Assembly: GCA_046758385.1 (NCBI GenBank)
Contig: JBHIAB010000002.1
Location: 1-53,932, forward strand
Direction of reading: 5' to 3'
DNA length: 53,932 nucleotides
Source of the DNA: Candidatus Methylomirabilia bacterium
GTDB lineage: Bacteria > Methylomirabilota > Methylomirabilia > Rokubacteriales > CSP1-6
Under the pieces are notes generated by a model that was given only the letters and a program-made list of their open reading frames with translations, was not told where the DNA came from and did not search any database. The translations under genes were made by a program, and so were the position numbers. This document shows positions 55 to 40,583 of the stretch, piece by piece; the stretch's first letter is position 1, and the number at the start of each line of letters is the position of its first letter.

Positions 55-846
55 TTAGAGAACGTCGCCGATAGTGGCCACGAGCTTTTGCCGGTACTCC
101 TTCGCCAGCGCCAGATCGGATCGCGCCTCCCTATCGATGCGCATTTCAGTCAGGACGCGCGCCGGGCGATCTAACGCGATCACGCGGTTCCCCACCTCGA
201 TGGCCTCTTCGATGTTGTGGGTCACGAAGACCACCGTCGTGCCTGCCCGCTTGTGCTCATCGATGGTGGTGACGAGCTGCAAGAAGTCGTTGCGGAGCCT
301 TCGGGCCGTGACCTCGTCAAGGTGCCCGAAGGCCTCGTCCAAGACCAGAATCGACGGATCCAATGCAAAGGCCCTCGCCAAGCTGACCCGTTGCCGCATC
401 CCGCCGGAAAGCTCGTGAGGGTAACGGTTCTCGAAGCTCTCAAGACCGAGCTTGGCCAGCCACTCCCGAGTCAGGTCTTGCCGCGCCTGCTTGCTGTAAC
501 CCAGAATCTCCAACCCTACCGCCGCATTGTCCAGCGCCGTCCGCCACGGCAAGAGCCGATCGGTTTGAAAGACGACGGCGATCTTTCGCTTGAGCTGAGC
601 AAACTCCGCATACGGATCCACGCCGTCAACCTCCACGCGACCCGAGCTCACCGGAATCAGCCCGTTGATGATGTTGAGGCAGGTAGATTTGCCACAGCCG
701 GTGGCACCGATGAGCGCTACACGCTCGCCCTCCCCCACCGCAAAACTCACGCCGTTGACGGCTACAAACTCCTTCTCACGGCCTGACTGTACATCGCGCA
801 CGCGGAAGGCCTTGATCACATTGTCCAGTCGTATCTTCTCGCGCAT
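55..846 (-). CDS. NitT/TauT-family ABC transporter ATP-binding protein
   Basis: Walker A GATGCGKS, signature LSGGM, Walker B LVLDE, H-loop VTH, and the VVFQTDRLLPW motif typical of TauB/SsuB. Confidence 0.95.
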   Translation of the reverse strand: MREKIRLDNVIKAFRVRDVQSGREKEFVAVNGVSFAVGEGERVALIGATGCGKSTCLNIINGLIPVSSGRVEVDGVDPYAEFAQLKRKIAVVFQTDRLLPWRTALDNAAVGLEILGYSKQARQDLTREWLAKLGLESFENRYPHELSGGMRQRVSLARAFALDPSILVLDEAFGHLDEVTARRLRNDFLQLVTTIDEHKRAGTTVVFVTHNIEEAIEVGNRVIALDRPARVLTEMRIDREARSDLALAKEYRQKLVATIGDVL

Positions 847-856
847 GACAACCTGG

Positions 857-1627
857 CTACAAAAGCTCCTTCGGCCTCCACTTCAACAGGTGGCTCTCGG
901 AGGTCTCAATCAAAGCTTCCAAAATAAGCACAAAGACCACGAGGAGGATAGTCCACGCGTAAATGAACTCGATTTCGAAGAATTCCTGCGCCAGCTGGAG
1001 CTGCGCGCCGACCCCCACCGCTGCCCCCACCAATTCGGCAATGATGACGATTCGGGTGGCATAGCCCAGGACCACCTTGGTCGTCGTGAGCACATGGGGG
1101 GTGACGAACGGGATGATCAGGATGCGAACCAGCTGCATCTTTCCGGGGCGAAACGACTTCACCATTTCCACGTAATCACGCGGAACTCCCTTGATCCCGT
1201 CGAGGACGTTCATGGCGTAGAACGGAAAGCTCGTAATCAGGATCACAAACAAGATCCGGAACTCGATATTGCCGAACCAGATCACGGCAATCAGCACCCA
1301 GCACAGGCCTGGTACGCCGATGATCAGCTTAATCAGCGTCGTCGAGCTGCGCTCGATCCGTTCCGAAAACGCCGTTACGATGCCCCAGGTCACCCCCACC
1401 ACAAAGGCCAGCGTCAATCCCTCGACGATTCGGATGAGGGTGCGGAGGAAATGCATGTATTCGGTGGCCATGATATCGCGCAGAGCCTTGAGGATGGCGT
1501 AGAGGCCAGGGGCGATAAAAGGCGGCAGGGTAAGGAACGGGAGGCTCGGCGGCTCAGCGGACACCACCTGAAACAGCAGTAGGAACCCTAGGACCGGATA
1601 GATCTCGTGCCGAGTTGGCAGCCTCAT
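857..1627 (-). CDS. NitT/TauT-family ABC transporter permease
   Basis: Several hydrophobic helices, an EAA-like loop (DGIKGVPRDYVEMVKSF), and position between the substrate-binding protein and the ATPase. Confidence 0.9.
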   Translation of the reverse strand: MRLPTRHEIYPVLGFLLLFQVVSAEPPSLPFLTLPPFIAPGLYAILKALRDIMATEYMHFLRTLIRIVEGLTLAFVVGVTWGIVTAFSERIERSSTTLIKLIIGVPGLCWVLIAVIWFGNIEFRILFVILITSFPFYAMNVLDGIKGVPRDYVEMVKSFRPGKMQLVRILIIPFVTPHVLTTTKVVLGYATRIVIIAELVGAAVGVGAQLQLAQEFFEIEFIYAWTILLVVFVLILEALIETSESHLLKWRPKELL

Positions 1628-1648
1628 CTTGGCATCGTTGTTCCCCCG

Positions 1649-2692
1649 CTAGCTCTGGTAAATGATCCCAGGCGGGATGTCCTTCACGAACCCAATCTTC
1701 ACCAGCGCTTGCATGAGCGTCGTCAACATATCCCGCTCTTCATGGGCGGGCTTCGTCGAATACCCCACCCTCCCTGCCAGGAAGGCCGCCTTAATGGGCC
1801 CGGTCCCCTTACCCGTCTTCTTCGCAACGACCTCCAGGGCGGCATCCAGGTTTGTCTTGAAGTAATTGCCCGCCTCCTGATACGTCTTGATCAGCCTGGG
1901 GACGACCTCCGGATGCTTCTTCAGAAAGGCCTCATGGGCATAGAGGACGATGACGTGCGAATCCTTGCCGGTCTTTCGGCGGTAGGCTTCACGCACGTTG
2001 ACCATGATGCGCGCATCTGGGTTCTTGCTCAAAAAGATGGACACTGCGGGCTCCCAGGAGAAGGCCACGTCGACCCTGCCCGCCGCCAGCTGTGTAGGTC
2101 CCCCGCCGGGTCCCTTGACGTTGATCAGCTCCGCGTCTTTCTGGAGATCGATGCCGTACAGCCCGGCCGTGGCCCTGGCGACCAGGAAATTGCCGGATCC
2201 GACGGGAGCCGCGATCTTCTTGCCTCGGAGGCCTTCGATACCGGTGAGTGCCGGATTCCTGGTGAGAAAGAAGGCCGCGGTAGGAGACTGGGTGGCGAAG
2301 ATGGTGGAATCTGCCCCCGCCGCCCGTTCCTTCATGGCGTTGCCGACCCCTCCCACGATGGCATCGAAGCGGCCAACGCGAAAGTCCGCATAGTAGGCCG
2401 GAATGCTGGAGCGCTTGGAGTAGTCGATGCGTAACCCATTTTGCTTGTCAAACCCCTTGTCCGAGATCACCGTGTTGATCATGGACGTGCTGCCGGCTAT
2501 CAGGGTGGGCATCCTGACGGCAATGGTGTCCTCGGCTGCACGTGCCATGCGGGGTCCCCCGGTAGGCATCAGGCTCCCGGCAGCCCACCCCAAGCCAGCA
2601 GCGGCCATCACTTTGAGAGCTGTCCTCCTGTCCACCCCCATGGATTCCAGGTTTTTGAGAGACTTTTCGACGTCGTGCCGTTCTGTCCTCAT
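1649..2692 (-). CDS. NitT/TauT (SsuA/THI5-like) ABC substrate-binding protein with twin-arginine signal
   Basis: ATG at 2692 with SD GGGAGG. Tat motif DRRTALK, then a hydrophobic stretch and an ARA cleavage site. LRGKKIAAP and GRVDVAFSWEP are typical SsuA/TauA-type motifs. Confidence 0.88.
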   Translation of the reverse strand: MRTERHDVEKSLKNLESMGVDRRTALKVMAAAGLGWAAGSLMPTGGPRMARAAEDTIAVRMPTLIAGSTSMINTVISDKGFDKQNGLRIDYSKRSSIPAYYADFRVGRFDAIVGGVGNAMKERAAGADSTIFATQSPTAAFFLTRNPALTGIEGLRGKKIAAPVGSGNFLVARATAGLYGIDLQKDAELINVKGPGGGPTQLAAGRVDVAFSWEPAVSIFLSKNPDARIMVNVREAYRRKTGKDSHVIVLYAHEAFLKKHPEVVPRLIKTYQEAGNYFKTNLDAALEVVAKKTGKGTGPIKAAFLAGRVGYSTKPAHEERDMLTTLMQALVKIGFVKDIPPGIIYQS

Positions 2693-2742
2693 GGCTTTCC
2701 TCCCTAGCACCGCGGGCGGTAAGGTCGCGTGAGTCAAGTGGG

Positions 2743-2771
2743 ATCATAGTCAAAACCCCGCCTGGAGTCAA
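2743..2771 (-). promoter_or_regulatory. sigma70-type promoter of the ABC importer operon
   Basis: Minus strand TTGACT (2771-2766), 17 nt, TATGAT (2748-2743). Confidence 0.75.
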
Positions 2772-3015
2772 ACGAAGGGCTGACTAAGCCCACCGGTGGA
2801 CCGGGGCGGTCAGGGCTCCGCGCCTTCCGGCGGCTCGTGCCGGAAGACGGGGCGACCTCCCACCATGGCGAGCCGGGCCCGAATCCGGGGAATCCGGGGG
2901 CCGTCACTGTCAAGGGCCCCTGAACTCCCACTCATGGGCTGAGCCCTCCGAGCCCTTCCAAATCGTAGCGGTATGACGCAGGGTGAAGAAATGGCCCTGA
3001 TGTGCGCGGAGACGC

Positions 3016-3045
3016 TTGACTCCGCCGGAGGAAATCGTTATGCAT
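3016..3045 (+). promoter_or_regulatory. possible sigma70 promoter of the amidohydrolase/Mo-hydroxylase operon
   Basis: TTGACT at 3016-3021, 17 nt, then a weak -10 (TATGCA). Confidence 0.35.
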
Positions 3046-3146
3046 TACCCACGATGCTTCCGATAGCTCCGGTCGAGAGCGGTCGCATCGCGACCAACGA
3101 GGCGCCGGCCCTGTAGCCGGCGCCGGGAGAGGGGGAGGAGCCACTG

Positions 3147-4148
3147 ATGGCCATCGACGTTCATGCCCACTACATCCCACCGCGCGTGCTTCGGGAGCTG
3201 GAGCGCAATCCGACCTCCTACGGTGTTGGCGTCGAACGCCAGGCCCATGGCGGCGTGCGCCTGCTCTTCCCCGGACAGGGCTACACCAGGCCGGTGCTTC
3301 CTGCGCTGCTCGACCTGGAGCGACGCGTGGACGAGCTCGCCAAGGCCGAGATCCATCATCAGCTGCTCGCCAACTGGATGGATGCCGTGGGATACGCGCT
3401 GCCTCCGGACACCGGTGCACGCTGGAGCCGTCTCTACAATGAGAGCCTGGCGGAGGCGCTGCGCGAACCAGCCGCAGCCGGCCGGTTCAGCGGCGTGGCC
3501 ACGGTGCCACTCCAGGATGGCAAGCGCGCGGCCGACGAGCTGATCCATGCGGTGCAGAGCCTGGGCCTCAAAGGGGTGCAGATCGGCACGAACGTGCTGG
3601 GGAGGAACCTTGACACGGTCGGGCTCGACGCCTTCTGGGAGATGGCCGCCGGGCTCCGCGTGCCCATCATTCTGCACCCGTGGCATGTGGCTGGCGAGGA
3701 GCGCATGCAGCGGCACGGCATGGTCCGCCTAATCGGCTATCCCGCAGATACGACGCTCGCGGCAGCCTCCATCATTTTCGGGGGCATCGCGGATCGCTTT
3801 CCGGATCTTCGTGTGGTGCTGGTTCATGCAGGCGGGTTCTACCCGTACCAGGCGGGCAGACTCCAGCGGGGGCTCACGCTTCAACCCGAGCCGAAGCCAG
3901 CGACTTCCGTGCAGGATTCGTTGCGCTGGTTCAACTACGACACCATCACTCACATGCCGGAAGCGCTGGCTTACCTCGCGGGGCTGGTGGGGATCGAGCG
4001 GATCGTTCTCGGAAGTGATGCACCGTTCGACGTGGGCGATCCCACACCAGTCGCGACCGTTCGGGCGGCCGGTCTCCGGGCCGAGCCCGCGGCAGCGATC
4101 CTCGAGCGGAATGCTGTCACGCTCTTTCGCTTGGATCCCGCGCGGTGA
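3147..4148 (+). CDS. amidohydrolase family 2 protein (ACMSD/LigW-like decarboxylase or hydrolase)
   Basis: N-terminal DVHAH metal motif, ILHP, VHAGG and GSDAPFD. SD GGAGGAG. Confidence 0.9.
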   Translation: MAIDVHAHYIPPRVLRELERNPTSYGVGVERQAHGGVRLLFPGQGYTRPVLPALLDLERRVDELAKAEIHHQLLANWMDAVGYALPPDTGARWSRLYNESLAEALREPAAAGRFSGVATVPLQDGKRAADELIHAVQSLGLKGVQIGTNVLGRNLDTVGLDAFWEMAAGLRVPIILHPWHVAGEERMQRHGMVRLIGYPADTTLAAASIIFGGIADRFPDLRVVLVHAGGFYPYQAGRLQRGLTLQPEPKPATSVQDSLRWFNYDTITHMPEALAYLAGLVGIERIVLGSDAPFDVGDPTPVATVRAAGLRAEPAAAILERNAVTLFRLDPAR

Positions 4149-5023
4149 AACCCGCCCCGTTCCGGTATGTGAAGCCCCGGACCCTCGAGGAAGCGGTTGG
4201 CATTCTGGCAGGGGCCGACGGCGATGCAAAGGTGCTCGCCGGCGGCCAGAGCCTGGTTCCGATGCTCAACATGCGACTCGCGCGCCCCCCCTTGGTCGTG
4301 GACGTCAACGGGCTCCCCGGGCTTGATGCCATCAGACCCACCCCCGACGGCGGTCTCATCGCCGGCGCGCTGGTGCGCCATGCCGACCTCGTGAGCTCAC
4401 CACTGGTGTGGGCGCGCGCGCCGTTACTGGCCGAGGCGGCAAGGCATATCGGATACCCAGCCATTAGAAATCGTGGCACGCTTGGCGGGAGCCTCGCGCA
4501 TGCCGACCCTGCAGCCGAGTTGCCGGCCGCAGTCATGGCCCTCGAGGCGGATCTGACCCTAGTCAGTGCGATGGGCACCCGAACCCTCCCGGCCGCAGCG
4601 TTCTTTCGGGGCGTCCTCACGACGGCGCTTCGCCCCGATGAGTTACTCACCGAAGTGCGCATCCCCGCCGCCGGCGCGGCCTGGGGCTTCGGGGAGTTGG
4701 CGCGACGCCCCGGCGACTATGCGCTTGCCGGCGTGGCCGCCGTGCTTCGGCCCGCGCCGGGTGATCGGCGCCGCTGCGCAGCAGCGCGCCTCGTCGCCTT
4801 CGGCGTCGGGCACGTCCCCGTTCGTCTCCAACCTGCCGAGGCGTCGGTGACAGGCGCGCTGATCGACGCCGGCACCTCGCGACGGGCCGGGCTGGCCGCA
4901 CGCCACGCATGCGAGCCGCCAGAGGATGTCCATGCCTCCGCTGAGTATCGCCGCCATCTCGCGGCGGTCTTGACCGAGCAGGTGCTGCTCGAGGCGATGA
5001 CCCGACTCCTTGGGGCCTGCTGA
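4145..5023 (+). CDS. xanthine dehydrogenase family FAD-binding subunit (CoxM/HmfB-like)
   Basis: AGGQSL and IRNRGTLGGSLAHADPAAE FAD motifs. GTGA overlap with the upstream gene. Confidence 0.95.
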   Translation: MKPAPFRYVKPRTLEEAVGILAGADGDAKVLAGGQSLVPMLNMRLARPPLVVDVNGLPGLDAIRPTPDGGLIAGALVRHADLVSSPLVWARAPLLAEAARHIGYPAIRNRGTLGGSLAHADPAAELPAAVMALEADLTLVSAMGTRTLPAAAFFRGVLTTALRPDELLTEVRIPAAGAAWGFGELARRPGDYALAGVAAVLRPAPGDRRRCAAARLVAFGVGHVPVRLQPAEASVTGALIDAGTSRRAGLAARHACEPPEDVHASAEYRRHLAAVLTEQVLLEAMTRLLGAC

Positions 5024-5529
5024 TGTCGCACGAAGGTCTCGACCGAAGCGTCGTGCGGCTCACCGTCAACGGCCGCGCCGTCGAGCAGTTGGTCGAGGCT
5101 CGGCGTTCCTTGGCGGACTTCCTGCGCGAGGATGTCGGTGTGACCGGGACCCACGTGGGTTGCGAGCATGGCGTATGCGGTGCCTGCACCGTGCTGCTCA
5201 ACGGGCGGAGCGTCAGGAGCTGTCTCCTGTTTGCGGTGCAGCTCGACGGAGCATGCATCACGACCATCGAGGGCCTGACGCCGAGGGAAGGGTTGAGCCC
5301 ACTCCAGCAAGCGTTCCGCGACCGTCACGCGCTCCAGTGCGGGTTCTGCACACCCGGCATGATCATCTCCAGTCACGAGCTGCTGAGCGAGATCCCGAGG
5401 CCGACGGAGGAGGAGATCCGGCACGCGCTGTCCGGGAACCTCTGCATGTGCACCGGCTACGTCAACATCGTCCGGGCGGTGGGGCAAGCGGCGGCGGCTC
5501 TCAGCCGCGACGCCGTTCGCGAGCCATGA
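5023..5529 (+). CDS. xanthine dehydrogenase family 2x[2Fe-2S] subunit (CoxS/HmfC-like)
   Basis: GCEHGVCGACT...C and QCGFCTPG...NLCMCTGY cysteine motifs. Confidence 0.95.
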   Translation: MSHEGLDRSVVRLTVNGRAVEQLVEARRSLADFLREDVGVTGTHVGCEHGVCGACTVLLNGRSVRSCLLFAVQLDGACITTIEGLTPREGLSPLQQAFRDRHALQCGFCTPGMIISSHELLSEIPRPTEEEIRHALSGNLCMCTGYVNIVRAVGQAAAALSRDAVREP

Positions 5530-7922
5530 CGGAACACAGGGCTGGCGGCGGCTGGGTCGGCACGGCCTGCACGGTCAAGGAAGACATACGGTTCGTCACA
5601 GGCCGCGGCCGTTTCATCGATGATCTCACGCGCCCACGGATGCTGCACGCGGCGATGCTCCGAAGCCCACACGCGCACGCTCGCATCATCGCCGTCGAGA
5701 CGCGAGAGGCAGAGGCGCTGCCCGGTGTCTTCGCCGTCCTCACAGGTGCCGAGGCCGCCACGGTTTCAAACCCCATCCGGCCGTTGATCCCGACGGCGGT
5801 GCCCCTACGCGACTACTGTCTCGCCGTCAATCGGGTGCGGTTCATGGGCGAGCCAGTCGCTGCCGTAGCAGCGGTAGATCGTGCGACGGCCGAGGATGCG
5901 CTCGAGCGAATCGTCGTGGAGTACGAGCCGCTGGAGGCGGTGGTCGATCCCGAGGCCGCGATCCGCCAAGATGTGCCGCTGCTCTACCCGGACCTCGGCA
6001 CGAACGTGCTCTGGCACGACACGCTGAGCTACGGTGACGTCGATGGGGCCTTTGCCGAGGCGGACGGCGTGCTGCAGGAGCGCTTCGAGATCCAGCGCTA
6101 TGCGTCGACCCCGCTCGAGACCTTCGGGGGTATCACCGAGTACGACCCGGCCGCCGACGGCTACCAGTTCTGGACCAACGACCAGCGGCCAGGGCTCACC
6201 ATCTCCATCCTCGCCGAGTCGCTCGGGGTGCCACAGTCCCGGCTCCGACTGAGTTGCCCCGACAGCGGCGGCGCCTTCGGGAACAAGCGGCGACCTGCCT
6301 ACCTTCTGGTGTGCGCACTGCTCGCCAAGAAGTCGGGGCGGCCCGTCAAGTGGATCGAGGACCGTCTCGAGAACCTCGGCGCGCTGATGCACGCAGCAGG
6401 CGGGATCATGAATCTGGAGCTGGCCTACCGCGCGGACGGCACGCTCCTCGGGCTTCGCGTGCGCGACATCACCGACGAAGGGAAGAACCTGATATCATCC
6501 ACGCAGCACAATCTCATCAAACTCGGCAATATCGCCAACGGATACCGCATCCCGGCCATCCAGTACGAGGCCTGGTCGGTGCTGACGAACAAGTGCCCGA
6601 GCGGGGCCAACCGCGGCATCGGCAAGCCTTTCATGTGCTTCGCCATCGAGCGGGCCGTGGCGCTCTTGGCACGGCGCCTTGGGCTCGACCCCGTCGAGCT
6701 GAGGCTCCGCAACTACGTGCGCCCCCACGAGATGCCCTACACCACGCCGCCCGGCGCCCAGTACGACAGCGGTGACTATCCCGCGACCCTTCGGAGGGCG
6801 CTGGAACGCTTCGACTACGCGCGGTGGCGCGCCACCCAAGCGGAGGCTCGGCGGGTCGGCCGTCTCCTCGGCATCGGCATCGCGACGTCCGTGGAGCCAG
6901 CTGGGACCAATCTCGCATCGTACGAACTCATCACTGGCCGCCGGACGGTCTCGGGCTCCGCCGAGGCGGCCATGGTGAGGATTGAGCCTGACGGGCACGT
7001 GCGCGCGGCGCTCGGCGATCCGGCGAGCGGCCAGAGCTACGAGACAGTGGTGGCGCAGATCGTCGCCGACGAGTTGGCCCTCAGCCCGGACCGCGTGCAG
7101 GTGGCAGCAGGCTTCGATTCGACCAGCACACCGTGGCTCTACCTCTCGGGCAACTACTCGAACAAGTTCTCGGTGACGGATGTCGGCGCCGTGGTCGGCG
7201 CGGCGCGCAAGGTACGCGACAAGCTCATCCGCCTGGCGGCGCACCGGCTCGAGATCGATCCTGCTGACCTCGAGCTGCGCGATGGGGCGGTTCGCGTCCG
7301 TGGGGTGCCGGGCCGCAGCCTGTCGTTCCAGGAACTCGCGCGGACCGCGTACGCAGACGTGCTGGGGCTCCCGCCTGGCGAGGAGCCAGGGCTCGAGGCG
7401 CGACACGCGCATCAGAACGAGCTAGCCACGCCGGTGGACGCCAGGCGGCGCGTGCGAGCCCAGCTGGTGTTTTCCAATGCCGCGCACTGCTGCCTGGTCG
7501 AGGTCAACGCGAAGACCGGGCTGGTCCGAATCCTCAAGTACGTCGTGGTGCACGACTGCGGCCGGGAGCTGAACCCGCTGATCGTCGAGGGCATGGTGCA
7601 TGGATCCACAGTGCACGGCATCGGCGCGGCGCTCCTGGAGGAGTTCCGCTACGACGAGCGCGGCCAGCTCCTGACCTCCACATTCATGGACTACCTGAAG
7701 CCCACCTCGGCCGATGTGCCCGCCATCGAGGTCGACCGGCTGGAGCACCCGTCGCCGTTCACGCCGCTCGGCGCCAAGGGTGTTGGTGAGGGAGGCGCGA
7801 TCCCGAGCCCGGCGGCGGTCGCCAACGCGGTCGAAGACGCACTGGCGCCTTCCGGCGTCACCATCCGGTCTCTGCCCGTCACACCGGAGCGGGTATGGCG
7901 CTCGATGCAGGCTCCGCCCTAA
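5526..7922 (+). CDS. xanthine dehydrogenase family molybdopterin-binding large subunit (HmfA-like clade; not form I CO dehydrogenase)
   Basis: ATG at 5526 overlaps the coxS-like stop. Motifs [47 protein letters not shown] and catalytic KGVGEGG. Confidence 0.92.
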
Positions 7923-7991
7923 CGCAGATTGGGCGACAGAGACAGGGAGAGCCTTTGAGCTGCCTCCCGTCGTGGGGCTATTCGGGCTAAA

Positions 7992-9425
7992 TCAGGACAC
8001 GAGCACCCGGCTGACGAAGTCGCGCGCCCAGGCCATCTTACCCGGCTCCATGGAGAGCTTCTCCGCGAACGGTTCTCCGAATGGCCTCGTGGCATCGATA
8101 CCGATCTTCGCCGTCAGCCCCCGCTTGCTGGCGGAGGGATCCAACATGGCGCCGAGGCTGTCGGAGATGATCACGAGGTCTCGATCCGCCCGCATCCGGG
8201 TCGCCAGGGCCCAGAACACGTCAGCCTCATCGAAGACGTCGATGTCGTCGTCCACGATCACGACGACCTTCAAGTAGTGATCTACCCCGAGCACGATGGG
8301 GATCGCGTGCTTGGCTTCCCCCGGCCGGCTCTGGGCAATGGAGACGAACGCGGTGAACGCCGCACCCCCTGAGGCAGGCACGTGCACGGCGGTGACATTC
8401 GGGACGACCCGGCTCAGCGCGCTCTTGATCTCGACCTCGCGGAGGACGCCGAGCGGCGAGATGTGGTCGGGCGCTCGACCCGAGCTGATGGACTGAAACC
8501 ACGGCCGGTCCCGCACGGACAGAGCCCTGGCGACAAAGACGTGCTCGGTGCTCCGCCTGGAGAAGTAGCCGGTGAACTCCCCAAAGGGGCCCTCGGGTTC
8601 TCTGACTCCGGCCAGGATCTCACCCTCGATGACGATCTCCCCCCAAGCGGGGATCAGCAGGTCAACGGTCGCGCACCTGGCGACCTCCATCGGCTCCTGG
8701 AACAACCCTCCCATCACCTCGAACTTCGAGATTTCGGGGGATGGGTACGAGAGCGCACCCAGGCTGACGAGCGGGTGAAGCCCGATGACGAGCGCACATT
8801 CGAGATTTTTCCCCCCAGCCTCCGCGCGCCGCTGATACTCGTACATCCGCCGACGAGAGTGCAGGCTCACGCCCATTCGACGTCTGTCCCTCACCTGAAA
8901 GCGGTGATAGCCCGCGGTCTCGACCCCGGTGTCCGGATCTTTGGCTACGGCCAGCGCGGCGGTGAGATAGGGGCTTGCATCGCCGGGATAGTAAGTCGGA
9001 ATGGGGAGCTGGCCGAGCAGGTCTACCCGGTCGCCGGTGAGGATGGTGTGGCGGAACGGAGGATCGTCCACCACCACAGGTTTCAGGTGCTGCTTGAGAC
9101 GGCCAGCGCATGTGGCCGACATCTGCGGCTCCGCGACTCCCAAAGCGTGGGCGTAGACACGCCGACTGGCCATGACATTGGAGATTACCGAGATGTCGTA
9201 GCCTTCGAGTTTCTCGAAGAGGAGAATGGGAAAGCGGCGCCGGCGCTCCAGCTCCAGCGCAATGGCCTGGAGGTCGAACCTGAGGTTGACCGGCTCGGTC
9301 ACCCGGATGAACTCACCCGGGTAGGCCGTGCCGTAGTCTTCCGCAAACGATCGGAGATCCTGTCTGGGACTTCTCACGCTGGCACCAGGCTCTTTGATGA
9401 GCCGTCGCGATGTGAGTCGAGCCAT
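7992..9425 (-). CDS. UbiD-family (prFMN-dependent) decarboxylase
   Basis: QDLRSF at the N-terminus, catalytic EGPFGEFTGY, and C-terminal DPS...AKIGIDAT. The start is uncertain because there is no clear SD. Confidence 0.92.
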   Translation of the reverse strand: MARLTSRRLIKEPGASVRSPRQDLRSFAEDYGTAYPGEFIRVTEPVNLRFDLQAIALELERRRRFPILLFEKLEGYDISVISNVMASRRVYAHALGVAEPQMSATCAGRLKQHLKPVVVDDPPFRHTILTGDRVDLLGQLPIPTYYPGDASPYLTAALAVAKDPDTGVETAGYHRFQVRDRRRMGVSLHSRRRMYEYQRRAEAGGKNLECALVIGLHPLVSLGALSYPSPEISKFEVMGGLFQEPMEVARCATVDLLIPAWGEIVIEGEILAGVREPEGPFGEFTGYFSRRSTEHVFVARALSVRDRPWFQSISSGRAPDHISPLGVLREVEIKSALSRVVPNVTAVHVPASGGAAFTAFVSIAQSRPGEAKHAIPIVLGVDHYLKVVVIVDDDIDVFDEADVFWALATRMRADRDLVIISDSLGAMLDPSASKRGLTAKIGIDATRPFGEPFAEKLSMEPGKMAWARDFVSRVLVS

Positions 9426-9474
9426 GCACGGGAGCGACTGCACCACCCCGCTCGACGCGGAGATAGTCGCTCAT
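9313..9474 (-). pseudogene. possible N-terminal remnant of an enoyl-CoA hydratase/crotonase gene
   Basis: ATG at 9474 forms an ATGA overlap with the upstream stop and reads MSDYLRVERGGAVA, like crotonase N-termini. The frame then loses similarity and overlaps ubiD out of frame. Confidence 0.4.
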
Positions 9475-10511
9475 GCCGTCCTCTCGGGGACGAGGACAAC
9501 CTTGCCGCGGTTCTTCCGGTCGATCAGGTGCTGGACCGCGTGCCCAGCCTCTGAGAGAGAAAACACGCGATCCACAACGGGGCGGAGGCGGCCGGCCTCC
9601 ACGAATTCCAGAAGGGTCCTGAGCTCCAGGATGGACCCCAGGTTGGTGCCGATGACGCGGAGGTTCTTGGAGTAGACGTGGCGAAGGTCCATGCGCCCCC
9701 AGTGGGTGTCGTGAGACCCGATGCTGATCAACGTGCCGAGGCGCGTGAGGCAGTACACGCTCCGCTCCAGGGTCTCGCCGCCGATGTGCTCGACTACCAC
9801 ATCCACGCCCCGCTTGTCGGTCCAGCGCCGGACCTCTTCGACAAAGTCCTGCCGGCGATGGTTGATCACCTGATCGGCGCCGAGCGATCGGGCAAAGTCG
9901 ATCTTCTCGTCGGCGCCCACCGTGGTGATCACCCTGGCGCCGACCAGTTTCGCGATCTGGATGGCCGCGCTCCCCACACCACTCCCAGCAGCGTGAACGA
10001 GCGCGGTCTGGCCGGGCCGCAAGGGCGCCTGGGAGACGAGCCCGTGCCACGAGGTGAGCATCGCCAGTGGGACAGCCGCACCGGCTTCAAAGCCGATCGC
10101 CTCAGGAAGCGGGATGATGTTCTCGGCCGGCGCCTTCACCAGCTCGGCGTAACCACCATCCTTGTGGGCACCGAGATAGCCGTAGCGGAGGCAGACCGTC
10201 CGCTGCGCGCGGAGGCAGAACTCGCAGCGACCGCAGGAGAAGCCAGGGAAGACGATCACGCGCCGCCCGATCGTGAGCCCGCTGACGTCGGGACCCATGG
10301 CGGCCAGGGTCCCGGTGACCTCGCAGCCGTTGACGTGCGGCAGCCCCTCGGGCGGTGGGAAACGACCGTCCAGGAGGAGCAGGTCCACCTGGTTCAGCGC
10401 GCAGGCCCGGACACGTACCAGGACCTCGCCCGGACCCGGCACCGGATCCTTGTAGTCGCCGTAGATGATCTCTTCGGAACCGCCGTGCTCTTTGAAGTAG
10501 GCCGCTTTCAT
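9471..10511 (-). CDS. MDR superfamily zinc-binding dehydrogenase / quinone oxidoreductase-like protein
   Basis: Structural-Zn CGRCEFC...C and AAGSGVG nucleotide motif. GHE is replaced by GCE and the first catalytic Cys is absent (ALNQVD). Confidence 0.9.
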   Translation of the reverse strand: MKAAYFKEHGGSEEIIYGDYKDPVPGPGEVLVRVRACALNQVDLLLLDGRFPPPEGLPHVNGCEVTGTLAAMGPDVSGLTIGRRVIVFPGFSCGRCEFCLRAQRTVCLRYGYLGAHKDGGYAELVKAPAENIIPLPEAIGFEAGAAVPLAMLTSWHGLVSQAPLRPGQTALVHAAGSGVGSAAIQIAKLVGARVITTVGADEKIDFARSLGADQVINHRRQDFVEEVRRWTDKRGVDVVVEHIGGETLERSVYCLTRLGTLISIGSHDTHWGRMDLRHVYSKNLRVIGTNLGSILELRTLLEFVEAGRLRPVVDRVFSLSEAGHAVQHLIDRKNRGKVVLVPERTA

Positions 10512-10553
10512 ACCGATCGTGGTCCTTTCGTGTGACGCGGAGTCAGGTTGGAG

Positions 10554-11951
10554 TTAGAACGGCACCTCGGCGCGTTCGTCCTTGACGCGCTTGGCCTTGT
10601 GATCCCAGCGCGGCAGGCCACCGGGCTGTGTCAGCTCCACGGTCACCCGGATCCCGAGCCCGATCCGGAGCGCTTCGGCCAGAGCCACCTGCATGCGCTG
10701 GCGCTTCTCAGGGGACAGCCCCGGCGCAGGGTCGATCCTGACCAGGATGTCATCGAGCCCCTCGGCGCGCCGGAAGATGATCTGAAACTCGTCCACGCCC
10801 CGATGGCCTCGCACGATCTCCTCGATGCGGCGGGGGTAGACGATGATGCCACGCACCTTCTTCATGTCGTCCAGACGGGCGAGCACGCCGCCCTCGAAGG
10901 CGACCAGCGTTCGGCCGCAGGTGCACGGACGATCCGCAAGCTGGACCAGATCTCGGGTCCGGTACCGGAGGAGCGGCATGGCCTTCCGGTAGAGGCTGGT
11001 GAGCACCAGCTCGCCCTTCTCCCCGGGCTTCACCGGCTGGTCCTGCTCGTCCAGGACTTCCGGATAACAGTAGTCCTCGTGGACGTGAACGAGGCCGGCC
11101 TGCGCGTCGCACTCGAAGCCCCAGGCCATGATCTCCGTGAGCCCCGGGAGGTCGAAGGCCCGGGCGCCGAACGCCGCTTCTATCCTGGCCTTGGTCGCCG
11201 GAATGGAGGCCCCTGGCTCGCCGGTGTGCCAGGTGATTCGGACCTTGCTCTCCTTGGCCAGACTGACCCCCTTCCTGCCCGCCTGCTCAGCCAGGAATAG
11301 CGCGTAGGAGGGCGTGCAGCCCAAGACCGTGATGGGATAAGTCAGGAGCGCGTCGATCCGCTGGTCGGTCGTGAGACCGCCCGCAGGAAAAACCATCGCG
11401 CCGAGATGCTGGGCCGCGTGAAAACCCAACCAGTAGCCGACCCACGGTCCGTAAGAGAACGCGGCCATCACCATGTCCGCCTTCCGCACTCCGAAGGCGT
11501 ACAGCGACCGGGCATAGGTGCGGTAGAAGCGGGCCCAGTCCCCCTCGGTGTCGACGATCGCCAGCGGCCTCCCCGTGGTGGCGGAGGTCATGTGTACACG
11601 CACACACTCCTCCAGCGGGACCGCGAGGAAGGTTCCCCAGAGGGGGTAATCGGCCTGGTCCTGCTTGAGCTCGTCCTTGGTCGTGAACGGCAGGCGCTCG
11701 AGATCTTTGAGCCGCTTGACCTGCCTGGGTGTGACGGCTGCCTCGCGGAGCTTCTCCCGGTAGAAGAGGCTCGCTCGGTAGGCATGCTCGACCTGCTCCC
11801 GGAGACGGCGTTCCTGAAGCCGCGCCAGCGTCCCTCGCGAGGCCGTCTCGATCTCTGGCTCCAGGTAGCGGGAACCGGCCTTCAGCCTCTTGGCCGAGCG
11901 AGGCCCTCTCCCGGCCTTGCGCCTGGGCTGCCTGGGGCGGCTTCGCCTCAT
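10554..11951 (-). CDS. phenylacetate-CoA ligase family (PaaK-like) aryl/heteroaryl-CoA ligase
   Basis: RLPFTTKDEL, MTSATTGRP, AFSYG, TGEPG, GELVLTSL, LLRYRTRD and the C-terminal KAKRV lysine motif. Confidence 0.92.
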   Translation of the reverse strand: MRRSRPRQPRRKAGRGPRSAKRLKAGSRYLEPEIETASRGTLARLQERRLREQVEHAYRASLFYREKLREAAVTPRQVKRLKDLERLPFTTKDELKQDQADYPLWGTFLAVPLEECVRVHMTSATTGRPLAIVDTEGDWARFYRTYARSLYAFGVRKADMVMAAFSYGPWVGYWLGFHAAQHLGAMVFPAGGLTTDQRIDALLTYPITVLGCTPSYALFLAEQAGRKGVSLAKESKVRITWHTGEPGASIPATKARIEAAFGARAFDLPGLTEIMAWGFECDAQAGLVHVHEDYCYPEVLDEQDQPVKPGEKGELVLTSLYRKAMPLLRYRTRDLVQLADRPCTCGRTLVAFEGGVLARLDDMKKVRGIIVYPRRIEEIVRGHRGVDEFQIIFRRAEGLDDILVRIDPAPGLSPEKRQRMQVALAEALRIGLGIRVTVELTQPGGLPRWDHKAKRVKDERAEVPF

Positions 11952-12391
11952 CCGGTGCTCCCGAGTTCCTGCGCCACCCGGGAGAAGAACTGGTCCAACG
12001 TCATCTTGGCCACGCCCCCCAGCATCCGCTGCCCGACTCCCGCGATCAGGCCCCCCACCTGGAGATCGGCGTGACAGGCGACCCTCGTGCCGCCGCCGAC
12101 CTCGGAGAGTTCCATGGAGGCCTCCCCGCGCATGAAGCCCTGAGCACCGCTTCCCTCCACCGCCATCTTGTACCGGGACGGTGGCTCCTTGTCGGACAAC
12201 CGCACCTTCCCATCAAACGTCCCCTTCACCGCGGCGACTCCCACCTTCAACGTCGCCTTGTACTCGTCTCCACCCACCGCTTCGAGCCTCTCGCAGCCCG
12301 GGATGACCTTGACGAGCTGCTCGGGATCGAGCAGCGCCTGCCACACTCGCTCGCGAGGAGCGGGGAGGGTGTAGCTGCCTTCGATCTTCAT
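11948..12391 (-). CDS. coxG: CoxG/SRPBCC family protein
   Basis: APRERVWQALLDPEQL...IPGCE, typical of CoxG. SD AAAGGA. Confidence 0.9.
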   Translation of the reverse strand: MKIEGSYTLPAPRERVWQALLDPEQLVKVIPGCERLEAVGGDEYKATLKVGVAAVKGTFDGKVRLSDKEPPSRYKMAVEGSGAQGFMRGEASMELSEVGGGTRVACHADLQVGGLIAGVGQRMLGGVAKMTLDQFFSRVAQELGSTG

Positions 12392-12609: not shown

Positions 12610-13635
12610 TCAGGCGGGACGAAACTTCTGGCGACCGACGGTGACGAACGCGACGGAATCCTCGGGCACCGCTGTCTCGATCACGAGGACCTGCTTGGGG
12701 AAGTCAATGGAACGGACAATCCCGAGCCCCAACGTCTCTCGCTCGGCGTTGTCCAGCCCGGCGAGCGCCCCTTGGAAGTCGTCCAGAGAGTAGTTGACCA
12801 CCTGGCACTCGTCAAAGCGCCGGGAGATCTGCCGGATCTGGACATCCTTCAGTGGATCCGGAGTGACCAGGATCAGCTCGGTGCCTCGTCGCTCCGCCCA
12901 GAGGACCATGTCATCCAAGAGCCCCGAGACCTCCTCGAGCTGGCGACTCGGGAGCGGCTGACCAACGGAGAGGGGGGGCTGCCGGAGCACCACCCGTGAG
13001 AGGTCCAGGTGTAGCGTCCGCGTTCCGTGGAAATACGCTTGAAGGGTCCGCTCACGGTGCAGACGCCGCTCCTCCTGGGAACGCTTCCGTCCGGCCGGGC
13101 CGGGAGCCAGGCGGAGGATTTCGGGTCGACGCCCCGGGCTGTACGGCCTCAGGATGTGCTCACACTCATCCCCGCGCTGCAGGCACGCGATGAGATCCGG
13201 GTTGACCAGGTCAATCTTGTGCTGCTTGAGGGTGCGCCCCAGCTCTCCCTGGATCAAGCCGCTTGTGTCGACGAGCACGCGCCCGAGCCCACTGGAGAGG
13301 CCTTTCTCCACCATGCGCTTGGTGCCGATGACGGTCGCCAGGAGGTGGCCCTGGGGCGAGGTGGAGCCCACGAAGTACAGCCCCACGACTTCCGCCTCTC
13401 CCAGTCGCTCCACCGGCTGGCCAATCAGCCCCAACCCCACCGTGGTCGGCGGGCCAATGTCGGACTGGCCTAGGTCAGCATCGACGACACCCACCCGGAA
13501 GCCGCGCTCGACCAGGCTATTGGCCAGGTAGGTGGTGAAGGAGCTCTTCCCGGTGTCGGTCTCACCGAGGATGAGGATGACGGGAACCTCAAGAGCCCGC
13601 CGGAGCGCCTTCTCCCAGGAGGGATCCGGAATCAT
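12610..13635 (-). CDS. Clp1/Grc3-family polynucleotide 5'-hydroxyl kinase
   Basis: Walker A GETDTGKS, DADLGQSDIGPP, VDTSG, and the Arg lid RSQEERRLHRE. ATGA-coupled to the aminotransferase. Confidence 0.88.
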   Translation of the reverse strand: MIPDPSWEKALRRALEVPVILILGETDTGKSSFTTYLANSLVERGFRVGVVDADLGQSDIGPPTTVGLGLIGQPVERLGEAEVVGLYFVGSTSPQGHLLATVIGTKRMVEKGLSSGLGRVLVDTSGLIQGELGRTLKQHKIDLVNPDLIACLQRGDECEHILRPYSPGRRPEILRLAPGPAGRKRSQEERRLHRERTLQAYFHGTRTLHLDLSRVVLRQPPLSVGQPLPSRQLEEVSGLLDDMVLWAERRGTELILVTPDPLKDVQIRQISRRFDECQVVNYSLDDFQGALAGLDNAERETLGLGIVRSIDFPKQVLVIETAVPEDSVAFVTVGRQKFRPA

Positions 13636-14822
13636 CCGTCCAGCGACCGGACAGCGTCGGCCATCCGGCCCAACCCCTCCGTGATGGTGCCGAGCCCCGC
13701 CGCGTAGGAGAAGCGCACATGGTGGTCCGAGGCAAAGTCGAGCCCAGGCACCACCGCCACCCGCGCCGCCTCGAGGAAAAAAGCCGCGACGGCTGAGGAA
13801 CCGGTCACAGCCGTGCCGTGCCAGTGCTTCCCGAAGAGCCCTGAGACATCGGGGAACGCGTAGAAGGCGCCTCGGGGCATCACGCAGGGGATCCCGACAA
13901 TCGAGTTGAGCCCCTCCACAAGAGCCCGGCGTCGGCGGTCAAACTCTCCGACCATCTTGGCCACATCGTCCTGCGGACCGGTCAGCGCCTCAACGGCCGC
14001 CCACTGCGCGACGGAAGACGGGTTGGAGGTCACCTGGCTCTGCACGTCCGCCATGGCGGCGGCCAGGGGCTCAGGGCCCGCCGCGTAGCCGATCCGCCAG
14101 CCGGTCATGGCATAGGCCTTGGAGCAGGTGTTGACCACGATGGTCCGGGCCTTGATCTCTGGGCCCAGGGTCGCGATGGAGACTCGCCGCAACCCGTAGG
14201 TGAGGGCCTCGTAGCATTCGTCCGAGATGACCCAGAGGTCCCGCTCGACTGCAAGCGCGGCGATGGCCCGGAGAGCCTCCGCAGAGAACACGGCTCCGGT
14301 GGGGTTGTTTGGGCTGTTGAGGACAATGGCCCTGGTGCGAGGGGTGACTGCCGCGCGCAAGCGATCCGGGTCCACCTCAAAGCCTCGAGACTCCTCGGTG
14401 GGAACCGCCACCGGCACGCCACCGAGGAGCTTGACCTGCTCGGGATAGGAGACCCAGTAGGGGCTCGGGATGAGAACCTCGTCCCCCTCATTCAGGAGTG
14501 CCAGGAAGATGTTGTAGAGGGTATGCTTGGCCCCGCAGGAAATCACGACTTCGGCGGGCCGGTACTCGAGGCCGTTGTCGCGCCGGAGCTTCTGGCAGAC
14601 TGCCTCCCGGAGCTCCGGGATCCCCGCGACCTCGGTGTACTTGGTCTGGCCCCGCTCGAGCGCGCGGCACGCCGCCTGCTTGATCCGCTCCGGGGTATCG
14701 AAGTCCGGCTCTCCCAAGCTGAAGGAGATGACGTCGATCCCCCGGGCGCGCATGGCCTTGGCCTTGGCCTGGACGGCCAGTGTGGCAGAGGGCTGAAGGG
14801 ACTTGAGCCGGTCGGCGAACAT
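13632..14822 (-). CDS. PLP-dependent class I/II aminotransferase (aspartate aminotransferase-like)
   Basis: GEPDF, NSPNNPTG, SDECY, and the PLP lysine motif SKAYAMTGWRIG. Confidence 0.95.
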   Translation of the reverse strand: MFADRLKSLQPSATLAVQAKAKAMRARGIDVISFSLGEPDFDTPERIKQAACRALERGQTKYTEVAGIPELREAVCQKLRRDNGLEYRPAEVVISCGAKHTLYNIFLALLNEGDEVLIPSPYWVSYPEQVKLLGGVPVAVPTEESRGFEVDPDRLRAAVTPRTRAIVLNSPNNPTGAVFSAEALRAIAALAVERDLWVISDECYEALTYGLRRVSIATLGPEIKARTIVVNTCSKAYAMTGWRIGYAAGPEPLAAAMADVQSQVTSNPSSVAQWAAVEALTGPQDDVAKMVGEFDRRRRALVEGLNSIVGIPCVMPRGAFYAFPDVSGLFGKHWHGTAVTGSSAVAAFFLEAARVAVVPGLDFASDHHVRFSYAAGLGTITEGLGRMADAVRSLDG

Positions 14823-14830
14823 CCGGACGG

Positions 14831-15316
14831 CTACTTCTTGGAGAACTTTTCCTTGAGGGCCGTCTCGACGTTCTCGGGGACCATGCCGGCCACCGACGCG
14901 CCGTAGCTGGCGACCTCCTTGATGAGGCGGGATGAGATGTAGGTGTACCTCTCGTGGGGCATCATGAAGACGGTTTCCACGCTGTCGCGGAGCTTCCGGT
15001 TCATCAGCGCCATCTGAAACTCGTACTCGAAGTCGGAGACCGCCCGGACGCCCCTCACGATCACATTGGCCCCCTCTCGCGTCACCAGGTCCACGAGGAG
15101 AGCATCGAAGGAGGTAATGCGGAAGTTGGCCAGCCCGCCGGTGGCCTCATCGATCAGGTCCATGCGCTCCTTCACCGTGAAGAGGGGCTCCTTCGCGGGG
15201 TTGGCCACCACGGCCACAATCAGCTGATCGAAGATCTGCAAGCTGCGCGTGATCAGATCCAGGTGCCCGTTATGGACCGGATCGAACATGCCGGGATACA
15301 CTGCCCGTTTCCCCAC
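14831..15316 (-). CDS. coaD: phosphopantetheine adenylyltransferase
   Basis: YPGMFDPVHNGH, VRGVRAVSDFEYE and ISSRLIKEVA. GTG start with SD GAGGAGG. Confidence 0.97.
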   Translation of the reverse strand: MGKRAVYPGMFDPVHNGHLDLITRSLQIFDQLIVAVVANPAKEPLFTVKERMDLIDEATGGLANFRITSFDALLVDLVTREGANVIVRGVRAVSDFEYEFQMALMNRKLRDSVETVFMMPHERYTYISSRLIKEVASYGASVAGMVPENVETALKEKFSKK

Positions 15317-18339: not shown

Positions 18340-18401
18340 CGAGGGGGTGTCGCCACACCCCCTCGGGATGAGTGCCGGTGGGAGGCCGCCACCCCCCACC
18401 G
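18340..18401. terminator. two GC-rich stem-loops between convergent rpmB and the microprotein genes
   Basis: CGAGGGGGTGT-CGCC-ACACCCCCTCG is a perfect 11-bp stem (18340-18365). A second stem is CGGTGGG...CCCACCG (18376-18401). Neither has a U-tract. Confidence 0.5.
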
Positions 18402-18417
18402 ATGACTGCGGGCTAGC

Positions 18418-18465
18418 TTATCTCTTCTTCTTTTTCTTTGCCGCAGCCTTCTTCTTTTTAGCCAT
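18418..18465 (-). CDS. Lys-rich microprotein B, 15 aa: MAKKKKAAAKKKKKR
   Basis: Read by hand: ATG at 18465, TAA at 18420-18418, SD AAAGGAGGTGA shortly upstream. Paralogous to 18554-18607. Confidence 0.75.
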   Translation of the reverse strand: MAKKKKAAAKKKKKR

Positions 18466-18553
18466 GCCCAGTTCTCACCTCCTTTCCCCCATGAGGGGAT
18501 ACCCCCTCCTGCGCTCCCATGGAGTATCTCCCTCAGGTCGGCAACGAGGGATA

Positions 18554-18607
18554 CTACTTCTTCTTTTTCGCGGGCTTCTTGGCGGCCGCCTTCTTCTTCT
18601 TGGCCAT
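18554..18607 (-). CDS. Lys-rich microprotein A, 17 aa: MAKKKKAAAKKPAKKKK
   Basis: Read by hand: ATG at 18607, TAG at 18556-18554, SD AAAGGGGGTGA, and GC3-rich codons (AAG/GCC). Starts 24 nt after the upstream stop. Confidence 0.75.
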   Translation of the reverse strand: MAKKKKAAAKKPAKKKK

Positions 18608-18631
18608 GCGCGAGCTCACCCCCTTTCAGGC

Positions 18632-19678: not shown

Positions 19679-19696
19679 CGTTTCACTTGTCCCGGC

Positions 19697-19744
19697 GTTT
19701 TCAGCATTTGCTGAAAACATAGGAAAGGTTGAAACCCTTGTCAA
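19697..19744 (-). promoter_or_regulatory. consensus sigma70 promoter overlapped by an operator palindrome
   Basis: TTGACA (19744-19739), 17 nt, TATGTT (19721-19716). The perfect inverted repeat GTTTTCAGCA-TT-TGCTGAAAAC at 19697-19718 covers the -10 and the start site. Confidence 0.85.
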
Positions 19745-19873
19745 GCAAAAAACATCCGGCACTGATATGTCGTTTGAGTTGAGCTGCAAAACGCTGGTTC
19801 AGGCGGCCTCTGGAGGCCAGTGAAAGGACCGGACGACGATGCCGGCTGAGGCCCCCGTTGGGGCCGACGACGG

Positions 19874-40582: not shown

Positions 40583-40583
40583 C

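Follow-up and report, generated by a model that had tools for sequence, protein, structure and literature searches.

Gene content and organization of the region

The region considered here (positions 55–12,391) lies on a stretch of 53,932 nucleotides (hereafter, the window) from contig JBHIAB010000002.1 of a Candidatus Methylomirabilia bacterium (assembly GCA_046758385.1), and carries genes that may serve the breakdown of heteroaromatic acids. It consists of eleven intact genes with high third-position G+C and nothing unrelated in between, in a window with a G+C content of 59–69%. The genes are arranged as two convergent operons plus a divergent transporter, and encode a three-component ABC importer, an Amidohydro_2 enzyme (Amido2), the FAD-binding, 2Fe-2S (FeS) and molybdopterin large subunits of a molybdenum (Mo) hydroxylase, a UbiD-family decarboxylase, a medium-chain dehydrogenase/reductase (MDR), a PaaK-family ligase and a CoxG accessory protein, with Pfam E-values mostly between 1e-14 and 1e-74 (2.8e-8 for the NMT1 match of the binding protein). 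This inventory, with its strong family matches, and this layout agree with an earlier sequence-only reading of the DNA, which also noted that UbiX is missing; no match to UbiX was found anywhere in the 54-kb window. The same reading had joined all these genes into one variant of the furan pathway hmf, with the amidohydrolase in the place of the hydratase HmfE, a proposal that is only partly retained below.

The hmf pathway (HmfABCDE and HmfFG of Cupriavidus basilensis HMF14) is considered here with the roles given in PMC8091172. Two hmf clusters found in plasmid records served as references: that of Burkholderia aenigmatica (L087; LysR, UbiD, UbiX, a 1010-aa large subunit, FAD, FeS, AMP-ligase, enoyl-CoA hydratase, GMC oxidase and MFS transporter), and that of Geobacillus kaustophilus pHTA426 (L088; UbiD and, further on, large subunit, CoxG, FAD, FeS, AMP-ligase and hydratase). 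These two clusters are 48% identical to each other for HmfA and HmfE, and 54% for HmfD.

The sequence-only reading had made its single pathway depend on the genes co-occurring in other genomes. The full eleven-gene combination was not found in any of approximately 150 related loci examined, while sub-clusters of the region do recur in other genomes, and the clustering is therefore more than chance. Much of the Rokubacteria set consists of orthologous regions in related genomes, which do not represent independent observations.

The importer and the molybdenum hydroxylase operon

The importer is encoded on the minus strand by a NitT/TauT-type ATPase (55–846; ABC_tran, 3.7e-34), a permease (857–1627; BPD_transp_1, 4.7e-18) and a periplasmic binding protein of the NMT1/SsuA type (1649–2737; TIGR01728 at 6e-22, below the cut-off), which probably starts at Met33 (base 2641), ahead of a twin-arginine signal (DRRTAL). 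A divergent intergenic region (2738–3146), in which a sigma-70-like site (2771–2743, minus strand) is recognized by consensus match only, separates the importer from the hydroxylase operon. Importer orthologues (77–84% identical) have a Mo enzyme of the xanthine dehydrogenase (XDH) family next to them in all three other contexts, once together with Amido2 (48%), and the large subunits found beside them are LuDH-like. More precisely, ATPase orthologues in L165–L167 (67–81% identical) adjoin Mo hydroxylases, and the permease orthologues of the same loci are 79–84% identical. Homologues of the binding protein are rare (7 at E≤1e-20 among 5.8 billion proteins): no orthologue was present among the loci gathered with other queries, and those few were found by a dedicated search.

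On the plus strand, four genes whose start and stop codons overlap at each junction encode Amido2 (3147–4148, 333 aa; PF04909, 3e-29), the FAD-binding medium subunit (4145–5023; FAD_binding_5, 4e-49, and CO_deh_flav_C, 1e-18; 41% identical to HmfB), the 2Fe-2S small subunit (5023–5529; with its cysteine motifs, 55–60% identical to HmfC and 49% to the small subunit of LuDH) and the molybdopterin large subunit (5526–7922; Ald_Xan_dh_C, MoCoBD_1 and MoCoBD_2). The large subunit finds its best PDB matches in quinoline 2-oxidoreductase (Qor, 2e-151) and mycobacterial CoxL (6e-148), and is 39% identical to both, 42.8% to HmfA of G. kaustophilus and 38.5% to that of B. aenigmatica, the two HmfA references being 47.7% identical to each other; its identity to HmfA falls under the 45% cut-off used in PMC8091172. 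Its active-site loop reads ANRGIGKPF and not AYxCSFR, the catalytic Glu being kept, and it scores 533 bits against TIGR02416, whose cut-off is 991. With the wrong loop and a score under the cut-off, an identity as CO dehydrogenase (form I CoxL) was rejected.

In a neighbor-joining (NJ) tree, the large subunit falls into a clade, named W, with 100% bootstrap, outside the equally supported Hmf clade (100%) formed by the two references and 11 Rokubacteria/Bacillota loci. By this tree, a comparison that the sequence-only reading had called for, orthology to HmfA was likewise rejected. The genes stand in cox-type order (medium, small, large subunit). Clade-W homologues are very numerous (thousands at about 80% identity) and abundant in Rokubacteria. 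Three clade-W loci retrieved with the large subunit have only the (FAD-)FeS-large subunit genes in common, and lack ligase, CoxG and UbiD.

The Amido2 protein belongs to the ACMSD branch of its family. Its best PDB match is human ACMSD (4ofc, 1.9e-41 over residues 1–305, approximately 30% identity), the next families following at about 1e-15, and all seven metal, catalytic and carboxylate-binding residues of ACMSD are kept (H6, H8, R47, H174, H224, R235 and D291). Among 58 homologues, Arg235 is conserved in 58, His174 in 57, His224 in 56 and Arg47 in 46, the remaining positions being invariant or nearly so. Because every ACMSD catalytic residue is kept, Amido2 is most likely a decarboxylase, probably Zn-dependent and non-oxidative, acting on a substrate that bears carboxylates. 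An N-heterocyclic substrate, as the sequence-only reading had suggested beside an S-heterocyclic one, remains plausible, but the opening of a lactam ring was judged unlikely given this residue set, even though a hydrolytic precedent exists in the family (DHLI).

The four-gene operon recurs in L091/L162, found in a metagenome scan, with identities of 69, 63, 79 and 80% for Amido2, FAD, FeS and large subunit, again with a divergent ABC importer, and with no ligase, CoxG or UbiD within 10 kb. More diverged copies occur in L092, L094 and L095, Amido2 also adjoins a Mo hydroxylase in L165, and at 35–41% identity its homologues are still usually found next to a Mo large subunit (approximately 20 more distant loci). 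Owing to this conserved adjacency across loci, importer, Amido2 and Mo hydroxylase are regarded as one functional unit (module A), at the core of which Amido2 and the Mo hydroxylase form a recurrent, uncharacterised two-enzyme unit. The place of HmfE, to which the amidohydrolase had been assigned, is thus taken from it: it is an ACMSD-type enzyme of a conserved Mo-hydroxylase operon that elsewhere does without ligase, CoxG and UbiD. The pairing provides clear candidates for biochemical work, and is, together with the conserved hmf-like cluster of Rokubacteria described below, the wider result of this analysis.

The CoxG-ligase-MDR operon and the hmf-like cluster of Rokubacteria

The convergent operon (module B) begins on the minus strand with a CoxG/SRPBCC accessory protein of the hmf type (11948–12391; COXG, 3.4e-26), which is 39% identical to the C-terminal domain (residues 845–986) of B. 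aenigmatica HmfA, 41% to the pHTA426 CoxG and 31% to another CoxG. CoxG is fused to HmfA in Burkholderia (L087:13999–17031), and is a separate gene in pHTA426 (L088:11962–14852) and in Rokubacteria, reflecting a fusion or a fission. The sequence-only reading had associated CoxG with the Mo hydroxylase of the region; both are present, but CoxG belongs to the ligase operon and not to that of the Mo enzyme.

The next gene, overlapping CoxG by 4 nt, encodes a PaaK-family acyl/aryl-CoA ligase (10554–11951, minus strand; AMP-binding and AMP-binding_C_2), whose homologues align from about residue 27, so that the true start may lie downstream. Its best PDB matches are PaaK1 (1.5e-68) and 2-hydroxyisobutyryl-CoA synthetase (3.8e-65). 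With 269 bits against TIGR02155 (cut-off 646) and 295 against NF041878 (cut-off 700), it remains far under the equivalog cut-offs, and a true PaaK was rejected in favor of membership in the PaaK fold family only. The third gene encodes a Zn-type MDR (9471–10511, minus strand; ADH_N, ADH_zinc_N; PDB 2eih, 7.6e-81), with a Cys4 structural-zinc motif and a catalytic-zinc-like site (Cys37/Cys63-Glu64). An MDR is thus present as had been described, but because of these zinc motifs it is placed nearer to Zn alcohol dehydrogenases than to enoyl reductases.

Scanning species-representative genomes with the ligase yielded 76 loci (L010–L085), nearly all from Rokubacteria/Methylomirabilota metagenome-assembled genomes (MAGs). 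As mapped by tblastn, their canonical order is coaD, aminotransferase, (Clp1-like gene), CoxG, PaaK-type ligase and MDR, followed by optional genes (for example, L039:7784–15611 and L163:1–11383), and this front part is complete in 28 Rokubacteria/Methylomirabilota loci. CoxG precedes the ligase in 44 loci, and MDR orthologues (73–79% identical) follow it in 37. The optional genes include an HmfE-like hydratase (29 loci; 44–49% identical to HmfE), an HmfD-like class I ligase (approximately 24 loci; 46–52% identical to pHTA426 HmfD), a luciferase-like gene (26 loci) and a UbiD of another clade (13 loci, twice with UbiX). For the hmf-like genes, identity to the references is as high as that of the two reference clusters to each other. 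In 10 of 11 loci, ligase homologues (65–82% identical) are directly preceded by genes for an HmfA-clade large subunit, (CoxG), FAD and FeS, the HmfA-clade gene of the eleventh (L084) lying 6.9 kb downstream of the ligase; all 11 large subunits group with both HmfA references in a clade of 100% bootstrap. No Mo enzyme is found within 10 kb of module B in more than 25 loci. More distant ligase homologues (56–58% identical) are present in Syntrophaceae and Desulfobacteraceae MAGs.

Only CoxG, ligase and MDR are common to the window and this hmf-like cluster, synteny stopping after the MDR and before UbiD. Nowhere in the 54 kb are there HmfD-like, HmfE-like or luciferase-like genes, a UbiX gene or an HmfA-clade gene. 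For HmfD no tblastn match was obtained in the window; as for HmfE, the only enoyl-CoA hydratase genes there are 28–35% identical and lie 30 kb away. As PaaK-type and HmfD-like ligases coexist in relatives, the former is not a replacement of the latter. The link to hmf proposed by the sequence-only reading is therefore real as regards CoxG and the HmfA-clade, HmfD-like and HmfE-like genes of relatives, but no enzyme of the window is an hmf orthologue.

Members of the Rokubacteria/Methylomirabilota abound, uncultured, in soils and aquifers, and little is known of the carbon sources that they use; furan-type and related heteroaromatic acids arise from plant-polymer decay. The hmf-like cluster is fixed next to coaD in most ligase-bearing loci, and therefore suggests that such acids are a regular substrate; the catabolism of furan-type acids may even be a core trait of this phylum.

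In L013, L016, L021 and other loci (e.g., L021:6231–14234), a single FAD/FeS pair and the ligase lie between two different large subunits, of which the upstream one is HmfA-clade and the downstream one belongs to a distinct clade, 'D', an arrangement suggesting that two Mo subunits share the same electron-transfer subunits.

The UbiD decarboxylase

The UbiD-family decarboxylase, which depends on prenylated flavin mononucleotide (prFMN), is encoded behind the MDR on the same minus strand (7992–9377; TIGR00148, 313.7 bits, cut-off 244.85). Its best PDB match is HmfF of Pelotomaculum (6h6v, 1.6e-80), and its identity is 36–38% both to HmfF and to putative xanthine-8-carboxylate decarboxylases (XCDC). 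The EGPFGEF motif is kept, R331 and the CRYH motif of HmfF are not. The His that aligns with H296/297 of HmfF, which confers furan specificity, is kept in all three UbiD clades. In the NJ tree, the clade of the window UbiD (clade W) joins the XCDC-like clade with a bootstrap of 95.5%, and the HmfF clade with 1%; orthology to HmfF, another comparison that the sequence-only reading had proposed, was consequently rejected.

The XCDC-like clade is composed of UbiDs from Sinorhizobium, Paracoccus and Cupriavidus clusters. The Sinorhizobium and Paracoccus clusters have the composition of the published lumazine cluster (two short amidohydrolases, UbiD, purine permease and GTPase, plus a Mo dehydrogenase in Sinorhizobium), while tblastn on the unannotated Cupriavidus locus recovered only UbiD followed by FAD, FeS and large-subunit genes. 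A clade lying between HmfF and xanthine-8-carboxylate decarboxylases is of interest, as such enzymes are considered as reversible (de)carboxylation catalysts.

The genomic context of this gene is variable. Close homologues (six loci) mostly have unrelated neighbors, including MR_MLE, Amidohydro_3 and luciferase-like genes and TRAP transporters. Of 74 loci, 20 have a UbiD-family gene no more than 10 kb from the ligase; genes of the window's own clade are among them in L021 and in L017/L163 (in the latter directly after UbiX), and never adjoin Amido2.

Homologues of the UbiD and of the large subunit that are 70–83% identical carry the automatic JGI names '2,5-furandicarboxylate decarboxylase 1' and '2-furoyl-CoA dehydrogenase large subunit', respectively. 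Both labels look over-specific, since the trees place the two proteins outside the HmfF and HmfA clades. Another observation concerns the UbiD clade of the canonical cluster (L039:14172–15611, L050, L052, L163:7826–9316 and approximately 10 more), in which an Asn occupies the position of the furan-specifying His (ENS versus EH), as does N318 in the pyrrole-2-carboxylate decarboxylase HudA.

Comparison with characterized pathways

With hmf, the window has in common a UbiD, a CoA ligase, a three-subunit XDH-family Mo enzyme and CoxG. The order differs, as Amido2-FAD-FeS-large subunit with CoxG in the opposite operon contrasts with large subunit-(CoxG)-FAD-FeS-ligase-hydratase in hmf, and so does the ligase, which is PaaK-type in the window and class I (HmfD) in hmf; HmfD, HmfE, HmfG/UbiX, an HmfF-clade UbiD and an HmfA-clade large subunit are all absent from the window.

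Another system is the lumazine cluster I of Cupriavidus sp. LA-1, which comprises the Mo dehydrogenase LuDH, the Amidohydro_2 enzyme DHLI, able to attack a ring amide, and the UbiD-type XCDC with UbiX (PMC12391406). The triad of Mo hydroxylase, Amidohydro_2 enzyme and prFMN-dependent UbiD is shared with the window, whose UbiD is 36–37% identical to putative XCDC of the sister clade. In contrast, the window has a single ACMSD-type Amido2 with no blastp or tblastn similarity to the DHLI alpha/beta pair, a large subunit 32% identical to LuDH, and neither a GTPase of the LA1_0143 type, nor UbiX, nor a nucleobase permease. Orthology to the lumazine cluster was accordingly rejected for Amido2 and for the large subunit.

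The picolinate (pic) cluster of Alcaligenes faecalis JQ135 combines the Mo dehydrogenase PicA with the Amidohydro_2 decarboxylase PicC, which belongs to the gamma-resorcylate decarboxylase branch, and is 45% identical to that enzyme (bioRxiv 10.1101/457895). The logic is the same as that considered for module A: a pyridine carboxylate is first hydroxylated by a Mo enzyme and then decarboxylated, non-oxidatively, by a Zn enzyme. Unlike PicC, the window enzyme carries the ACMSD-branch HxH motif, so that PicC orthology was rejected on account of the different branch, and the window holds neither a PicB-type monooxygenase nor ring-cleavage genes. Its neighbors also differ from those of ACMSD itself, being Mo hydroxylase subunits and not 3-hydroxyanthranilate dioxygenase or aminomuconate-semialdehyde dehydrogenase; homologues 33–35% identical from cultured bacteria sit in meta-cleavage contexts.

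Finally, isophthalate degradation in Syntrophorhabdus aromaticivorans relies on a PaaK-family isophthalate:CoA ligase, a UbiD-family isophthalyl-CoA decarboxylase and UbiX (PMC9516798). Compared by description only, both systems encode a PaaK-family ligase together with UbiD, but the isophthalate system acts by decarboxylating a CoA ester, leads to benzoyl-CoA, and, unlike the region, comprises neither a Mo hydroxylase nor CoxG. A literature search for thiophene- or pyrrole-carboxylate gene clusters, and for 6-hydroxyquinolinate decarboxylase, found nothing usable in the collection searched.

Taken together, the region mixes the hmf, picolinate, lumazine and possibly isophthalate schemes, and fails membership in each of them. 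The clade-W Mo hydroxylase, its ACMSD-type partner, the clade-W UbiD, and the PaaK-type ligase with MDR of the hmf-like cluster are uncharacterised subfamilies.

Possible pathways and alternative readings

The region is read here, with a probability of about 0.5, as the junction of two neighboring modules that would act on heteroaromatic acids bearing carboxyl groups and, probably, nitrogen, each module being found many times without the other. In the order of steps that we infer from gene families, catalytic residues, clade placement and synteny, module A (55–7922) would be a self-contained, CoA-independent unit, in which the ABC importer would take up a carboxylated, probably N-containing heteroaromatic acid, the three-subunit Mo hydroxylase would add a water-derived hydroxyl, and the ACMSD-type Zn enzyme would strip a carboxyl from the hydroxylated product, following a logic like that of picolinate (PicA/PicC) and lumazine (LuDH/DHLI/XCDC) breakdown. 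Module B (9471–12391, probably with UbiD at 7992–9377) represents, in what looks like a shortened copy, the front end of the phylum-wide hmf-like cluster: UbiD would remove one carboxyl from a (hetero)aromatic diacid, the ligase would form the CoA thioester, and this thioester would be hydroxylated, with the help of CoxG, by a Mo hydroxylase whose genes lie elsewhere, or possibly by the neighboring one.

Several observations weigh against this division, most of them favoring one hmf-like pathway of all eleven genes. In such a pathway, import, decarboxylation by UbiD and activation by the PaaK-type ligase would be followed by hydroxylation of the CoA ester by the Mo enzyme with CoxG, reduction by the MDR, and ring opening by the Amidohydro_2 enzyme in the place of HmfE. 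The eleven genes follow one another without interruption, the operon of CoxG includes no Mo enzyme, and the sole XDH-family enzyme of the window is that of module A. In 29 relatives an HmfE-like gene comes after the MDR, and the window lacks it; an Amidohydro_2 enzyme can, as DHLI illustrates, attack a ring amide. Clade W is also the nearest sister of the Hmf clade, although weakly supported (64.5%, NJ), and its hydroxylase may, judging from this placement, also accept CoA esters; we know of no sequence signature for the binding of such esters.

Two genomic contexts point in the same direction. In L025/L026, an operon of Amido2 (58%), FeS and large subunit (62%) lies two genes after a full hmf-like cluster. 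L084 (3731–21141), from a Bacillota MAG, joins the same functions on one strand, with UbiD, ABC importer, PaaK-type ligase (68%), a second UbiD, an ADP-forming acyl-CoA synthetase, GntR, DUF2848, CN-hydrolase, Amidohydro_2, HmfA-clade large subunit and CoxG genes, and may encode, in another phylum, a CoA-dependent route for an N-heterocycle. Modules A and B could thus form one pathway with a shared substrate.

Other points concern the UbiD and the material compared. The attribution of UbiD to module B over A is uncertain: strand, spacing (24–93 bases after the MDR) and the presence of UbiDs in the canonical cluster make us lean slightly to the ligase module, but UbiDs of other clades stand directly upstream of an Amido2-FAD-FeS operon without ligase in L094, and convergent to Amido2 in L111. 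The contig ends 54 bases past the importer, so that missing genes may sit just outside the window. All trees are NJ trees on MAFFT alignments with few characterized references, and the XCDC, HmfA, HmfD and HmfE references were picked by cluster synteny, not from published sequences.

A single pathway of all eleven genes is nevertheless held to be unlikely, if worth keeping in mind. Module A occurs without ligase, CoxG or UbiD, module B stands far from any Mo enzyme in many loci, and the full combination is not seen in the approximately 150 related loci; moreover, Amido2 keeps both carboxylate-binding Arg with the full ACMSD decarboxylase set, and has no detectable similarity to DHLI, and the MDR carries Zn alcohol-dehydrogenase motifs.

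The break in synteny between MDR and UbiD leaves room for another division, in which importer, Mo hydroxylase, Amidohydro_2 enzyme and UbiD would constitute a lumazine-type, CoA-free route for a free N-heterocyclic acid, with CoxG, ligase and MDR as an unrelated neighbor. Besides the triad known from the lumazine pathway, the sister relationship of the UbiD clade to putative XCDC and the LuDH-like large subunits beside importer orthologues, L094 unites on one strand, without ligase, a Mo enzyme, an NMT1 binding protein, a cupin, UbiD, Amido2 (46%), FAD and FeS, and in L111 Amido2 (40%) is convergent to UbiD and accompanied by a nucleobase permease. Yet the UbiDs of these two loci are in other clades, while those of the window's own clade occur near the ligase (L017/L163, L021) and never next to Amido2, and the window UbiD lies on the ligase strand closely behind the MDR. 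With the DHLI pair, the LA1_0143-type GTPase and UbiX lacking in the window, and a large subunit so distant from LuDH, this route is regarded as improbable.

More doubtful still is the idea that the clade-W Mo hydroxylase is a second type of acyl-CoA hydroxylase beside HmfABC, in an undescribed CoA-dependent pathway for N-heteroaromatic dicarboxylates (pyridine or pyrrole dicarboxylate), in which it would act with the PaaK-type ligase, CoxG, UbiD and an ACMSD-fold enzyme working on the CoA-bound hydroxylated ring.

Least probable is an isophthalate-type order in module B, where the PaaK-type ligase would activate a (hetero)aromatic dicarboxylate and UbiD would then decarboxylate the CoA thioester: the precedent of S. 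aromaticivorans, the shared operon of ligase and UbiD, and the ligase homologues of Syntrophaceae and Desulfobacteraceae speak for it, but HmfF and XCDC, the nearest characterized relatives of the UbiD, act on free acids, and CoxG and the HmfA-clade link in relatives point to hydroxylation and not to a benzoyl-CoA route.

Neighboring genes

Upstream of CoxG, the window continues with the conserved backbone of the hmf-like cluster (12610–15316, minus strand; Pfam assignments), comprising a Clp1-like P-loop protein, a class I/II aminotransferase and CoaD. The Clp1/Grc3-like gene (12610–13635, minus strand; CLP1_P, 1e-37, with a weak NOL9-like C-terminal match) stands between aminotransferase and CoxG, and many Rokubacteria loci have it at the same place. 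Its family is best known for RNA kinases of eukaryotes and archaea.

Farther away, a stretch of lower G+C content (18347–26223; 0.57–0.62) between relA/spoT and an acyl-CoA dehydrogenase gene contains an AbiEi-like regulator, a Zincin_1 protein, an N6/N4 DNA methylase and open reading frames without Pfam match, possibly forming a small mobile or defence islet. It is followed by a large acyl-CoA metabolism cluster (26784–44255), with two acyl-CoA dehydrogenases, a family III CoA-transferase, several short-chain dehydrogenases/reductases, a KstD-like FAD_binding_2 protein, a cyclase, a glyoxalase-fold protein, a bis-molybdopterin guanine dinucleotide (bis-MGD) molybdoenzyme (38519–40927), two MaoC-type hydratases and an enoyl-CoA hydratase, which is a candidate pathway for a lipid-like or alicyclic substrate.

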